DNA from: Escherichia coli
Lineage (GTDB): Bacteria; Pseudomonadota; Gammaproteobacteria; Enterobacterales; Enterobacteriaceae
Strand: one strand, 5' to 3'
DNA: 64,000 bases
Assembly (NCBI RefSeq): GCF_044324785.1
Contig: NZ_CP172127.1
A program made the position numbers. This document shows positions 43,601 through 55,600 of the stretch, piece by piece. Numbering within the stretch: the stretch's first letter is position 1; every line of letters begins with the position of its first letter.

Positions 43601-46600
43601 GTAGCTACCGCTTTAACGCGGGTATCCATCGCCGCGTCGTTCAGCGCCATGCCGCCCCAGCCACAAATACCGAGCAGCCCGATACGGTTGCGATCTACCT
43701 CTTTTTGCAGCCCTAAGAAATCCACCGCCGCGCTGAAATCTTCAGTGTTGATATCCGGTGAGGCGACGTTTCGCGGATAGCCGCCACTTTCCCCGGTGTA
43801 AGAAGGATCGAACGCCAGGGTAACAAACCCTCGTTCCGCCAGCGTCTGCGCATACAAGCCGCTGGATTGCTCTTTCACCGCGCCAAATGGCCCACTGACC
43901 GCAATCGCCGCCAGCTTGCGATCGCCACGGTCTTTAGGCAGGTAAAGATCGCCCACTAAGGTGATGCCATATCGGTTCGGGAACGAGACTTTACGGTGAT
44001 CGACTTTCTGGCTCTCGGCGAACGTTTTATCCCATTTATCTGTCATGGACACAGGGGCATTAGGATTGGTTGAATCAGCATAACTCATTGTCGTGACTCC
44101 ACTTAATGATGCGAAAAGCAGCATGGTCGGCATCGCGGTTTTTAGCGTTCGGGTGAAGGCTTTCATAAAAATCCCCATAAAAAACAACAGAGAGATACAG
44201 GTTTCCGACGGACAACGCTGCGGTGCTTTACTTTGATGGGGTCATTATAGTGAGCAGAATTAGTGCTGATTAGGGGGCGATTAATGCTAAGATTAATACC
44301 ATATTGTTATAAATTAATGCGGAGATTGCCGGCATGAAGGAGGGATGTTTCAATGGCGAAAAGGGAGAACTATAACGAGCTGTACCTGTTTATGCAGGTG
44401 GTGCGAGAAGGCAGCTTTACCGCAGCGGCTCAGCGGCTGGGTCTTGCTCAGTCAGGAGTCAGCCGTTCTGTTCGCGAGCTTGAAGAAAGGCTGGGCGTCC
44501 AGCTGCTAGTGCGCACCACGCGTAAACTGTCGCTGACACAAGCAGGCGAGCAGCTCTACCAGAAGACGGCATCTGGATTTGAAATGTTAGATCTTGGGCT
44601 TGCCACGCTGGCGCACTATCGAGAGACGCCCTCCGGCACTGTGCGTATCAATGCCAGCCAGCACGCGATTGATAAATGCCTGCTGCCAAAGCTGGCGGTA
44701 TTTAAACAGCGATATCCTGATATCCGGCTTGAACTGATAAATGAGAGCCGGTTCGTCGATATCATCGAGGAAAGATTCGATGCAGGTGTCCGCCTGGGGC
44801 CTGAAGTCGGCCAGGGTATGGTCGCGGTACGCATCACGCCCGATATGGAGATGGCAATTGTGGGGACTCCGGAACATTTTCGTCGCTATGGTTTTCCGCA
44901 AACCCCGGCGGATTTAAAGGCGCATCCCTGTATCGCCTATCAGTTTGCCGACGGCAGCGTATACCAGTGGGAACTCAATCAGGATGATAAAAAAATCACT
45001 CATCGCCCTGAAGGGCAATGGGCCTTATCCGACAGCTATATGGAAGCAGAAGCAGCCCGGCTGGGCCTCGGATTGGCCTATGTTCCTGTTGAACTGGTCG
45101 CGGATGATTTAGAACACGGTAAGCTTATCAGGGTGTTGCAGCGTTACAGCCTGCGAATGGAGGGATTGTTTCTCTATTACCCTCATCGCAACGTCTCCCC
45201 CGCCCTGCGGATGGTCATTGATACATTGAAAATCTGAACGTTAACAACGACCGACTCTTCACTGTGCAAAATTGTGTCAGGTAGTCCCTCTGCGTTCAAT
45301 TCCAGGGTCTGTACACCCTGCTTTGAGCGAGAAAGAGGGGACTATCCAGCAATGGAGATCACCCAAAAGAAAAAACCACCAGGCTCCCTCGACAACCTTC
45401 ATCCGGGCATTTAGCCTCAATCAACATTTTTATATCTGTCAGGTTACTTCATTATGAAAACTGATCATCATCGTTGTTTTTGTTGCAATAGTAGAATACG
45501 CGTATTTATTCCTCCATCTCTATTAATAACGGCAATAAACTGTTCACTTCACTGATATTTAAAATATACATCCTTTTCAAGCTGTTCAGCGGCGTAAGAA
45601 AAAGTATTAATTATGAATTCGACGATTTAACCATTTCTGGCTGATTGGTAATCATCTGTGATTAATGCTGGTCTATTGATTACGCCAGCACCCTCTCTAG
45701 CTTATTCACCGCCGCCACATACTTCGCCGGATTTTTATCTTTCAGCACCGCCAGATTACGTTGCTTCCAGCGAATAGCCGGAAGATGCTGAATTTCAGGA
45801 TAGCGATACCGCGACCAGTCAGGGCTGTTTTGCTTAAAACTGAGCAAGAACTCGCGATCCAGATCCGTAAGATGTGACTTCAACGCCTGCGGCAGCAAAG
45901 TCGTTACTGACAGCAGCGATTCCAGCGACGTTTCCTGCTGAGTCATCCCCGAAAATTCCTGAGCATACAGCGTCGTGATCCGCTCTGTATCCCAGTTTGG
46001 GGCCAGCAACTCGGCAATGGGGCGGGGATGGCCTGCCAGATAACAAAGAAAACCGTCAAAGATCTCCCGCATCAGTCCCGGTTTCTCCAGCATATTCAGC
46101 ACATCAAACAGATCGCGCGGGTGCTGACGATCAAGCGCTGCGCAGATTTTACCGCCATAAAGATCCGCCAGCGAGACGACACTCATGGTGGTGAAGCCAT
46201 ACTCCATTTCCACACGTTCGCACACAGGCATTTCTGCCGGAGGCAACAACAGCCCGCGCCAGACCGGGCTAACCTCGATCTTAATCTTTGCATCAGCGGT
46301 ATTCACAATGATGCGCTTTTCATCCGCTTTATTTTCCTGCCGAATCGCGGTGATCCCCGGTCTGCCGTTCAGCGATGCAGTAATCCTCTTCAAAGCGTCG
46401 TTGATAGCCGCCAGATCAGTATCGCGATCCGCAAAGCTCTTATACGCCAGATCAATATCCACCGACAGACGGGGAAAATCCTGCACAAACAAATTGATTG
46501 CCGTGCCGCCTTTCAACGCGAAACAGGACTCCTTCGCCACATGCGGCAGAGCAGCCATCAACAGCTTAACCTGCCGGGCATAACTATCACGCAGATCCAT

Positions 46601-52600: not shown

Positions 52601-55600
52601 ATGTGCTTACAGCCAAACATGGTTATGATATTGATTATATTTACTATGCCTTAAGACTTGAATTAAAGCGATTGCGAGAAAAATCTCAAGGCTCGCAAAC
52701 AAAGTTTCTGACAATGCCGATTTTGACCAGTATATCGCTAGGAAACCTAGTCGAGACTGAACAATCGACAGTTTCAAGAGTATTAAAAATACTGGATAAA
52801 AAAATCGCTCTCAACAATCGTATCAACGCCGAGCTGGAAGCGATGGCGAAAACACTGTATGACTACTGGTTTGTACAGTTTGATTTCCCTGATGCCAACG
52901 GAAAACCGTATAAAACCTCCGGCGGGAAGATGGTGTACAACGCCACGCTGAAACGGGAAATTCCGGCGGGGTGGAATATTAAAAATCTTGGCGATATAGC
53001 GGAACTATATCAGCCTAAGACCATTTCAGGTAACGATTTTATTGATGATGGTGAATATCTTGTATATGGAGCCAACGGTATTGTAGGAAGATTCAATAAA
53101 TATAACCATGAAGAACCTGTCGTTACAATCACCTGCCGTGGAAATACGTGCGGCAATATAAACGTCACACGACCATATTCATGGATTACAGGGAATGCAA
53201 TGGTGGTTAAGCCAAAGTTTAACTATATTTCACCTTATTATATTTATAATTTATTGTCGATATCGGAAGTTGATAAAGTCATTACTGGCTCTGCTCAACC
53301 TCAAATTACGCGAGCAAACCTAGCTCCACTTAAGGTTGTTGAACCAGCAGAGGACATTACGCAAAAATACTCAAAGTCTGTTGATGCTTTTTTTAAAAAG
53401 CATATCTCAATATTAGATGAAAATGATAATTTATTAAAACTCCGCGACTGGCTCCTCCCCCTGCTTATGAACGGACAGGTCACGGTCAAATAATCCCCGC
53501 CGTGTTTTGCGAGGCGCATTCCAGATCCACATTGCGCCGCGCTCACCGCTGTAAAACCGCTTGCCGTTCATAACCGATCGAAGTATCTTTCTCCCGCGCC
53601 TGCAAAATCAGGCGTCGGGATTAGCCTCCTGAAAACCGTTACAGGCGACACTTGACGCACCAGCGTCTTTTTTGTGTCGTGCGTTCGGCTACACCTCAAT
53701 GGCGGGCCGGGCGGGGGCGTCGCAAGACGCGCCGGTTTCCTGTAACGCCGGTAAGGCTAACCCCGTCCGGTTCCGCCACCCATGAGATTAGCCTCTCTAG
53801 TGGCGGACATAATAAACCGTTACAGGAGATGCCCTATGGCTACAATCCTCACCCCTGACTGCGATTTACTCGATCTGTTATCCGTTCCCTTCAATGCCAC
53901 CACGGATTTTACTGTCCTTGCCGATTACTGCACCCGCTTCGCCGAAACCCTGATAGAAACCGACGATCCCGCGCTGCGGCTGGCGCTGAGCGGACGGCTT
54001 CACGCGGCTCTTGCGCTACTGCAACCCACACTGCATGACCCCATCCCGCCGCATCTTACCGAAAGCCTGACCGTTAATACCCTTCCCGCCACACCAGAGC
54101 ACTTTATTTCCGAACCCGATTCCTTGTGCGAATACTGCCTCGCACTGCTCCAGCTTCTGCTGGAACGCCCGGCGGAGCCAAAAATGGAGCAAACCCTGAC
54201 CGGGCTGCTGTGTGAGCTGGTCTGGAATTTCACGGAAGGACTCAAATCCCCGCGCTGGCTGCGTACCGCCGACGGCGTAAAATTTATCAGTGAGGTGGCC
54301 GCATGATGCAACAGGACTGGCATTCCACCGACATTATCGCCACGCTGAAAAAGCGGGGAACGTCTCTGGCGGCGCAGAGAAAAACTCATTGCGGACGCGC
54401 TGTAAATATCGTCAGAAATCATCTGGCCTTCAAGGTACTTTGATAGCAAAGGCAAGCAGGCTGGTTCAGTCCCGTGTTTCTCTTCTTGCATTTTCAGAAA
54501 TGGGAGGCTGGGAGTCTATCGAAATGGTTCGTCGATATGCTCACCTCGCACCTAATCACCTTACCGAACACGCACGGCAAATAGACTCGATCCTGAACCC
54601 ATCGGTCCCAAATTTGTCCCAGTCAAAAAATAAGGAAGGTACTAATGATGTGTAACTTATTGATTTAAATGGTGCCGATAATAGGAGTCGAACCTACGAC
54701 CTTCGCATTACGAATCTGTAGAACCAATCATAACTATCTGTTTTAGCAAGCATTAACCGCATTCACCAAGCAATAGTTGATGGCACAAACAGAAAGTTGA
54801 TGCATGATGTTGTCATGTGTATGTCACAAATACGGCACAACGATCTTCAAACATGTAGCCACCCAGCATAGAAGAGCACAAATCCTTGCAATCCAGTGCA
54901 AAGCTTTGTGTACCTTAGTTTTGTCTCATAGGTAATTCTGCTTTAACTGCGATGCAGGAATCTGTCACCAGACGCACGTCTCGTTGTTTTATGGTTTTCC
55001 GTTCATGATTAATATGTTAGCTTGTCAAAGTTTGTGTTTAAGATATGGTGATTGATGCAATGTTAAGCGTTCAGATGACTCCACAAGCAAAAGTTAGCTT
55101 CGAGGAGCAATGTTTTTTTCATGCTTCATGTCTTGTTGTTGCCCCAATAAATGTTGGAGCATTCTCCTACTTTGGCGCTAATTGTATGCTCGGCGGCTTT
55201 ACGATGGGTAGATTTTGTTCAGTTGCTCCAGGAGTAAAAATTGGCCTTGGCGAGCATGAAACTGGGTATTTTTCTACGCATCCTTTTTTCTTTGGCTCAA
55301 AAAATGGTTTTAAAATCCCTGATGGTATAGGAATGCAACGCGACCTCTCTCAACAGAAGCATGGTATACCAAGAATTGGTCATGACGTATGGATAGGTGC
55401 AAATGCGGTTATCAGGCGAGGTATAACTATTGGTACTGGCGCTGTTATTGCTGCTGGCGCTATTGTCACCAAAAATGTCGATCCATATTCAATCGTAGGT
55501 GGCGTTTCTGCAAAACACCTAGGGTACAGATTTGAGGAATCAATCATCAAAGAGTTACTGGATAGCCAATGGTGGGAATATGATTTAAGCTCATTTATTG

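Follow-up and report, generated by a model that had tools for sequence, protein, structure and literature searches.

The 64,000-nt stretch of Escherichia coli DNA analysed here (assembly GCF_044324785.1, contig NZ_CP172127.1; hereafter the window, whose positions supply all coordinates not assigned to another locus) contains a defence island at 45680-54715 that is very probably a lineage variant of the E. coli island GI-thrW. In this explanation, which we consider the best overall, the interval is the immobile torso of an island of the P4-integrase family, and a P22-like prophage later entered the same tRNA gene. The interval comprises an AbiEii/AbiEi pair, the type I restriction-modification (R-M) genes hsdR-hsdM-hsdS, an isrK/C4 antisense RNA cassette, a conserved gene of 156 codons (ORF156), a ner-like pseudogene, an integrase remnant and a 3' fragment of the tRNA gene thrW. 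GI-thrW and its R-M system have been described in sequence type 131 (ST131) (PMC4134206, PMC4659465), and knockout identified the R-M system, EcoMIII (hsdR-hsdM-hsdS), as methylating RTACN4GTG (PMC4659465). The island is therefore already named and partly characterised, as GI-thrW with EcoMIII, and the locus is common.

The window has both the gene order of GI-thrW (AbiE, hsdRMS, C4, ORF156, integrase stub) and its position 3' of thrW. To the left lies chromosomal backbone in the order ecp, yagU, paoABCD, major facilitator superfamily transporter gene, hydrolase gene and LysR gene (44353-45237), the last of which, with its flank, is common to O157 and other strains. A partial copy of ykgR, a small membrane protein gene, occurs at 45458-45574 in the spacer between LysR and AbiEii, with approximately 92% identity to ykgR elsewhere in E. 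coli; this copy is backbone shared with O157 and not island DNA. An earlier reading of the window (the original prediction) had placed an AbiE pair and hsdR-hsdM-hsdS between the LysR module and a tRNA-Thr 3' fragment, and PADLOC, NCBIfam and an exact 46-nt match to thrW bear this arrangement out. At least 80% of 45238-54720 is present in 539 of 5426 complete E. coli genomes, about 520 of which carry the ST131-type island; the LysR-flanked form seen in the window is rarer, being found in porcine enterotoxigenic E. coli (ETEC) and a few other strains. Identity to the nearest relatives is mosaic, at 99.9% for AbiEii, 98.6% for hsdR, 93.7% for hsdM, 99.5% for the C4 cassette and 93.8% for ORF156.

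The thrW fragment, the integrase stub and the stacked elements

The fragment at 54670-54715 (minus strand) is the displaced 46-nt 3' end of thrW, the gene for tRNA-Thr (CGU). The original prediction had taken it for the 3' end of a tRNA-Thr gene, present only as the displaced part, and the exact match and the alignment to annotated thrW genes agree. A 47-nt query found one match in the window, with 0 mismatches, and matched in 0/100 shuffles; true identity to thrW covers 46 nt, ending ...ACGAAT at the step to CTGT. No complete tRNA was found by ARAGORN in the window, or by Rfam in 44000-64000. The same 46 nt form the att core of SfI, SfIV, SfV and P22-type phages and, together with the arms, constitute attL of the adjoining prophage. 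The temperate phages that integrate in thrW include P22, ST64T, ST104 and the Shigella phages SfI, SfII, SfIV and SfV (PMC3851460, PMC2629481), and a 46-bp attP lies next to int in SfI, SfIV and SfV (PMC3851460).

From 54716 to 64000 the window holds the left part of a P22-like prophage, which runs off its end. PHROG matches to tailspike, Ant, Arc and DNA-transfer protein, and an Rfam match to sar, mark its character; the content consists of a P' arm, a CatB-like acetyltransferase gene, tailspike, ant, sar RNA, arc/mnt, an insertion sequence (IS) and a DNA-transfer protein gene. In the immI region, sar RNA is at 59085-59151 (Rfam), arc at 59152-59376 and mnt at 59404-59658. The IS transposase gene (59742-60710, plus strand; PHROG 2262, 322 aa), at which local GC rises to about 0.50, lies just past the mnt-like gene, and the prophage may be damaged. 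The gene adjoining attP, at 55045-55716 on the plus strand, encodes a CatB/Vat-like hexapeptide-repeat O-acetyltransferase that also occurs in the free-phage record phage_14408_1; all of its NCBIfam matches fall below the curated cut-offs. Sf and P22-type phages normally have O-antigen conversion genes in the slot beside attP. Among complete E. coli genomes, none contains 80% or more of 54400-64000.

That the P22-like phage integrated later, and in the same tRNA gene, had also been predicted, and three comparisons support it. ETEC4070, RIVM_C036569 and Br_167_kylling are free of the prophage and carry the same island, which agrees with the window in ner-stub junction and stub allele, immediately next to an intact tRNA-Thr gene followed by proA and proB. 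In phage_14408_1, int is followed by its stop codon and 14 nt, the 46-nt core, the CatB-like acetyltransferase gene and the tailspike gene, and identity of the window to this record is 100% in the spacer and core and 99.3% in the 300 nt that follow (54716-55015). In GPEC172, the same island is followed by a P22-like prophage that ends with int, a 14-nt gap, an intact thrW and proA. In the free phage, the region of int, attP and the acetyltransferase gene is collinear with the stub, spacer, core and P' arm, which could also be taken to mean that the stub, spacer and 46-nt core belong to the present prophage, for example as a duplicated attP region, and are no older remnant. We regard this as extremely improbable, given that the same stub and ner pseudogene stand beside an intact thrW in the prophage-free genomes, and that the int of the very phage that shares the P' arm matches the stub of the window over its first 95 nt only, at 84%. 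A different int allele next to an identical P' arm implies instead that the junction in the window is a true hybrid attL, in which an old chromosomal arm is joined to the P' arm of a phage.

The integrase stub itself (54452-54655, plus strand) consists of the last 67 codons of a thrW-specific tyrosine integrase of the SfII/P22 family. At the nucleotide level it is 99.4% identical to int of SfII, SfI and phi458 over 54497-54660 and 91.5% identical to that of SfIV over 54451-54660; the encoded peptide is 60% identical to residues 318-377 of an intact, 384-aa P22-like Int, with homology beginning at about 54452. The catalytic tyrosine motif, RRYAHL, is present. Everything upstream is absent, so that the stub is equivalent to residues 318-384 only and does not contain the full catalytic and N-terminal arm-binding domains of a P22/Sf integrase. 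A 14-nt spacer (54656-54669) separates the int stop codon from the 3' end of the tRNA fragment, and the same gap is found between int and thrW in GPEC172 and in the attP of phage_14408_1. The intact P22-like junction in locus L003 (int at 39716-40870, plus strand; tRNA-Thr at 40885-40960, minus strand) has the same geometry as the stub and fragment. The original prediction was thus correct in describing the only integrase sequence as a terminal stub, 14 nt from the tRNA fragment and convergent with it as at a canonical junction; its length was underestimated at about 45 codons.

It had further been implied that the stub was the integrase of the island, and here the comparisons point elsewhere. 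Were the stub the rest of an island-borne P22-like integrase, AbiE and hsdRMS would be the cargo of a single thrW-specific element, and two elements would be stacked at the site. The canonical arrangement of int, 14 nt and thrW fits this idea, as does the fact that no other integrase sequence is left in the island of the window. We nevertheless consider it improbable. The stub is 99.4% identical to the int genes of true phages, SfII and SfI. It meets the ner-like pseudogene at a deletion scar, a GGCAA microhomology common to all thrW-island lineages, at a point where intact relatives continue with other genes. In related islands of Klebsiella (at pheV) and Salmonella (at pheU), isrK/C4, ORF15x and Ner are followed by an EFASI RNA, then by a gene of the Integrase_1 family and finally by a P4-type integrase gene, which lies next to the tRNA gene and on the opposite strand. 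Finally, ST131 has the same junction with a P22-like in place of an SfII-like allele, which implies that the stub has been exchanged independently of the island. The simplest reading of these sequences is that the stub is the leftover of a thrW-integrating phage, its phage origin being indicated by the near-identity to SfII/SfI int.

After about 35 nt the ST131 stub changes to a P22-like allele, which closely matches the aligned 3' end of the complete int in the GPEC172 prophage. The distal part of the stub thus appears to have been overwritten by later phages, by integration followed by homologous deletion between the stub and the incoming int. ST131 GI-thrW also contains two copies of the unit formed by an int stub, 14 nt and the thrW 3' end (L005 2085-2342 and 12892-13185), 10812 nt apart; the SfII-like stub allele is in the distal copy and the P22-like one in the proximal copy. 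These two copies indicate repeated phage integration and loss at thrW.

Deletion scars and the history of the site

The left end of the island is a scar of 11/12-nt microhomology, ATTAC(G/T)CCAGCA, at 45679-45690, by which the LysR-ykgR' backbone is joined to the stop-codon end of AbiEii. Window positions 45100-45690 match L008 12971-13579, while window positions 45679-45900 match L008 16387-16608, and at the junction the backbone sequence ...GGTCTATTGATTACGCCAGCA meets the island sequence ...ATTACTCCAGCACCCTCTC. Relative to TB06052, the scar removes a hypothetical gene, a short-chain dehydrogenase/reductase gene, a second LysR gene and the 3' remnant of a distal integrase, and it has changed the last residue of AbiEii from E to A. 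A left att repeat was considered and rejected: the window contains no second copy of the thrW core (allowing up to 3 mismatches) and no convincing direct repeat, and the left end is a deletion scar. Judged from these alignments, both ends of the island are microhomology deletion scars. With no left att site and no surviving integrase, the island is immobilised and cannot excise, a part of the original prediction that follows directly from the sequence.

tRNA genes gather stacked elements, the older of which lose their integrases, and the present site would have arisen in five steps. The island would have sat 3' of thrW, and an SfII-type phage using the 46-bp thrW core would then have integrated beside it. 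A deletion at the GGCAA microhomology would have removed the tRNA-proximal end of the island together with nearly the whole phage, fusing ner to the last 67 codons of int. A second microhomology deletion would have joined the AbiEii stop codon to LysR-ykgR', with loss of the distal end, including a P4-type integrase. Lastly, a P22-like phage would have entered the 46-bp core by site-specific recombination and displaced the old thrW 3' end to 54670-54715, in which case thrW was presumably rebuilt at the far end of the prophage, beyond the window. The two stacked elements proposed originally are therefore too few, although the stacking and the immobilisation of the older element both hold: at least three layers are stacked at thrW, whichever integrase placed the AbiE block.

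Several observations weigh against this account. The order of events was not observed; we infer it from comparisons among loci. The far end of the prophage, with its int and intact thrW, falls outside the window, past 64000. A dS of about 0.2 between lineages, taken with the mosaic identities given above, indicates recombination within the island, which blurs any simple history, and the premature stop in hsdM described below may be a sequencing error. A further difficulty comes from ST131, in which direct repeats of 63 nt from the thrW 3' end (94% identical, 10812 nt apart) flank GI-thrW. A P4-type integrase gene with one internal stop lies immediately within the distal repeat, and outside that repeat is a second phage-type stub. 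With this distal P4-type pseudogene and second thrW fragment, the island may be of the distal-integrase type, like CP4-6 of K-12, or a composite.

Accordingly, the block from AbiE through the cargo to C4 could be a CP4-6-style thrW element with a distal integrase, sharing modules with the pheV and pheU islands by recombination. The position of the P4-type integrase just inside the distal ST131 repeat favours such an origin. CP4-6 is arranged in the same way, its intF lying next to the distal fragment, and TB06052 retains the 3' end of the distal integrase beside AbiEii. On the other hand, the distal integrase is only 22% identical to IntF, a value on which we also rejected it as the orthologue of K-12 IntF. 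Its complete form is nearly confined to the ST131-type island (520 genomes at 99% identity or above) and was a pseudogene in every copy examined. Furthermore, collinearity between the window and the Klebsiella pheV island, whose integrase is tRNA-proximal, extends from Ner across the cargo as far as AbiEi and AbiEii. We consider the CP4-6-style origin somewhat unlikely, and a lineage variant of GI-thrW derived from a P4-integrase-family island remains the explanation we prefer.

The window thereby offers a well-resolved case in which a defence island has been frozen by microhomology deletions. The occurrence of both SfII-type and P22-type alleles at the one junction that the lineages share illustrates that a phage int stub next to a tRNA gene can be overwritten by later phages. 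For annotation, this is a warning that an int stub beside a tRNA gene need not belong to the adjoining cargo.

Defence cargo and the putative C4 control module

AbiEii (45680-46600, minus strand) is an intact nucleotidyltransferase toxin of 306 aa, matched by PADLOC PDLC02290 (E=3.4e-116) over residues 5-305. The gene is 99.9% identical to that of ETEC4070, its RefSeq relatives are labelled AbiEii/AbiGii, and the Klebsiella homologue carries PF08843 (DUF1814), the AbiEii nucleotidyltransferase toxin domain. Directly upstream on the same strand and in one operon is AbiEi, the antitoxin and autorepressor (46587-47369, minus strand; PADLOC PDLC02227, E=3.9e-78), which is intact at 260 aa from the RefSeq start in a reading frame open up to 47390; the two genes overlap by 14 nt, at 46587-46600. 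The Klebsiella relative of AbiEi has the Pfam domains AbiEi_3_N and AbiEi_3. In AbiE systems, a class of type IV toxin-antitoxin and abortive infection modules, the nucleotidyltransferase toxin AbiEii is neutralised and repressed by AbiEi. By analogy with this family, the pair may abort phage infection and may also serve as an addiction module opposing loss of the island.

The restriction subunit gene hsdR (47653-50751, plus strand; alternative start at 47632) encodes an intact protein of 1032 aa, identified as a type I subunit with nuclease and helicase domains by PADLOC REase_I and by TIGR00348, the latter with 259 bits, below the curated cut-off of 284.55. At 98.6% nucleotide identity to ETEC4070 and 97.2% to ST131, whose genes are annotated as type I R subunits, it is the orthologue of the HsdR of the EcoMIII-type system in ST131 GI-thrW. 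The methyltransferase gene hsdM (50745-52382, plus strand; PADLOC MTase_I, 908 bits, over profile positions 57-540 of 541 only) carries a premature stop. Codon 5 is TAA at 50757, in place of GAA in all three aligned relatives; the next in-frame start is a GTG at 50910, which would cost 55 N-terminal residues, and the gene is thus not a complete open reading frame (ORF). The specificity subunit gene hsdS (52375-53493, plus strand), at which GC drops to 0.40, is intact at 372 aa and matches PADLOC Specificity_I (E=4.9e-93; residues 5-372 on profile positions 9-398 of 403). Only its central and C-terminal conserved regions match ETEC4070 and ST131, both target-recognition domains having been replaced, from which a specificity different from that of the relatives would be expected. 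Type I systems methylate and restrict as M2S and R2M2S complexes, and HsdR needs the M2S core. With a stop at codon 5 of hsdM and HsdR dependent on that core, the whole R-M system is, on sequence grounds, probably dead in this strain.

The interval from hsdS to the stub includes an intact isrK/C4 cassette (53583-53783), which, like ORF156, the ner-like pseudogene and the hsdM nonsense codon, was absent from the original prediction. Its first part (53583-53673, plus strand) is an a1/b1 target region with an isrK-like leader: Rfam isrK matches 53596-53673 with 68 bits (gathering score 50), and the c4-a1b1 model scores 43.8 bits, slightly under its gathering score of 46.7. The a1 word is UUAGCCU at 53621 and the b1 word is CGUUACAGG at 53637. 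The second part (53695-53783, plus strand) encodes a C4-type antisense RNA of the P1 c4/P4 CI class (Rfam RF01695, 79.9 bits, gathering score 45, E=1.5e-14), with loops b' (UCCUGUAACG at 53738) and a' (AGGCUAA at 53754). These loops are complementary, by exact words of 7 nt and 9-10 nt, to duplicated targets, namely a1/b1 (53621/53637) and a2/b2 (53788 and 53818-53827). The b2 word overlaps an AGGAG ribosome-binding site located 7 nt ahead of the ORF156 ATG at 53836. By analogy with the action of P1 c4 on icd/ant, the C4 RNA would block the ORF156 ribosome-binding site by pairing of a'/b' with a2/b2. RNA duplex energies between C4 and its targets did not discriminate from shuffled controls, and the argument for targeting draws on the exact complementary words and the Rfam model, not on duplex energy. 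The same cassette precedes ORF15x in five related loci, where C4 scores 71-85 bits.

RefSeq places an 'ash family protein' coding sequence of about 52 aa over the C4 RNA gene, both in the window (53695-53853) and in relatives; what has been called as a protein there is probably spurious, the gene being one for an RNA. In some database proteins, 'ash' is fused to ORF156 (PF10554 matches). The match to 'ash'/C4 had suggested that the element might be a P4-like satellite, an identity that was rejected: with every ORF of 45680-54715 accounted for, none is a psu, sid, delta or alpha primase gene, and the C4 operon points toward the tRNA gene, unlike that of P4. A genuine P4-like satellite at thrW in O157 does carry genes of the psu/sid/delta/primase type and has a different appearance from the island in the window.

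ORF156 (53836-54306, plus strand) is intact and is predicted to be the first gene under C4 control. Its conserved hypothetical product of 156 aa has 409 homologues across Enterobacterales, none of them named or with a Pfam domain of its own. No match was found in PADLOC, PHROGs or NCBIfam, and the sole tblastn match among phage genomes was to one 1.5-kb fragment record. An AlphaFold2 model (mean predicted local distance difference test score 82.9) predicts a four-helix bundle plus a hairpin, for which Foldseek searches of PDB and BFVD returned nothing below E=0.01, only generic helical bundles. Among three thrW-island lineages having the same ner lesions, dN/dS is about 0.1, a value that suggests ORF156 is still under selection and that recombination could inflate. 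Purifying selection even in islands devoid of mobility functions would, within the doubtful proposal set out below, suggest a role that benefits the host or senses phages; the product might act as an induction switch resembling that of a satellite, or regulate the adjoining defence cargo.

The ner/SfsB-like (HTH_35) pseudogene (54303-54451, plus strand) was recognised by alignment to the intact genes of loci L011, L014 and L016, which encode 73-84 aa. Within it 65 nt have been deleted and a GAA codon has become TAA, and about 8 terminal codons are missing; the same lesions occur in RIVM_C036569 and ST131, and NCBIfam SfsB and PHROG 769 match the N-terminus only. In the relatives, an EFASI RNA (Rfam RF02957, 99-119 bits) stands directly upstream of an Integrase_1/Phage_int_SAM_2 gene (L014 11300-11429, L016 12556-12685, L011 11733-11861), a part that has been lost from the island of the window. 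The same module, up to the Integrase_1 gene, also occurs in E. coli near cobUST, at a locus with tRNA genes on its flanks. Literature searches on the C4 cassette in genomic islands, and on EFASI, gave no relevant result.

Between AbiEi and the isrK/C4 cassette is a swappable slot whose cargo varies by genome. hsdRMS occupies it in the window, in ETEC strains and in ST131. In RIVM_C036569 and Br_167_kylling, whose islands are otherwise near-identical, it holds a defence-associated reverse transcriptase of 1069 aa (PADLOC RT_UG5-nitrilase; L004 10724-13933 and L006 18986-22195). The Salmonella pheU island has Olokun OloA/OloB there, and TB06052 and Klebsiella have a DUF4747 protein of 323 aa with a partner of 165/185 aa (L008 18400-19898; L014 7854-9412). 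PADLOC gave no match to the DUF4747 pair, to which no defence role has been assigned; the two genes are candidates for a defence pair not yet characterised and could represent a new defence system. These observations allow a doubtful but specific proposal, in which isrK/C4, ORF156 and Ner would form a conserved control module in a hitherto undescribed family of 'integrase-only' defence islands with P4-type integrases in Enterobacterales, with one swappable slot directly upstream. The C4-ORF156 module and its slot could help to define how such islands are regulated.

Comparison with known systems

The closest known system is GI-thrW of ST131 (EC958, JJ1886), which occupies the same locus, between thrW-proA and the yagU side, and has the same order of AbiEii, AbiEi, hsdR, hsdM, hsdS, C4, ORF156, ner' and int stub, with nucleotide identity of 92-97% in AbiE and hsdRM. 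Unlike ST131, the window has no distal P4-type integrase pseudogene, second thrW fragment or second stub, and joins LysR-ykgR' instead; it also differs in the HsdS target-recognition domains, in the stop at hsdM codon 5 and in having the SfII in place of the P22-like stub allele.

K-12 CP4-6 shares the attachment site, with a displaced thrW fragment distally and a P22-type int stub beyond. To illustrate, the distal end of CP4-6 in K-12 MG1655, at about 297.2 kb (L009 6208-6330), shows a 49-nt thrW fragment followed by a short P22-type stub encoding ...GTNTAQEEN..., which implies that the thrW-adjacent stub is old and widespread in E. coli. The integrase of CP4-6, IntF, lies just inside the distal repeat, as does its 22%-identical counterpart in ST131, of which nothing remains in the window. 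The cargo of CP4-6 is entirely different.

With respect to the thrW phages, the int 3' end, 14-nt spacer and 46-bp core are arranged as in the attP of P22, ST64T, ST104, SfI, SfII, SfIV and SfV, and the resident prophage likewise has a conversion-type gene beside attP. Unlike these phages, the island has only 67 integrase codons, and the resident prophage, a different P22-like phage that arrived later, has its own int outside the window.

The antisense cassette resembles P1 immI c4 and P4 CI (Rfam clan CL00128) and the Salmonella Gifsy-1 isrK, with covariance matches above the gathering scores. As in P1 c4 and P4 CI, the a/b targets are present twice and can pair with the a'/b' loops by complementarity, and the second copy covers a downstream ribosome-binding site. 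In contrast to both, the downstream genes are ORF156 and a Ner-like helix-turn-helix gene and not icd/ant or the P4 alpha operon; unlike P4, the host element is a non-phage island without psu, sid, delta or primase.

E. coli 'integrase-only' defence islands at tRNA hotspots have been described in general terms (Hochhauser et al. 2023, PMC10121019). As far as the part of that account considered here extends, the island of the window corresponds to them in being a tRNA-linked defence hotspot with an integrase as the only type of mobility gene and with strain-variable cargo, and it differs in the C4-ORF156-Ner module and the anatomy of the thrW stub, neither of which is described in that part.

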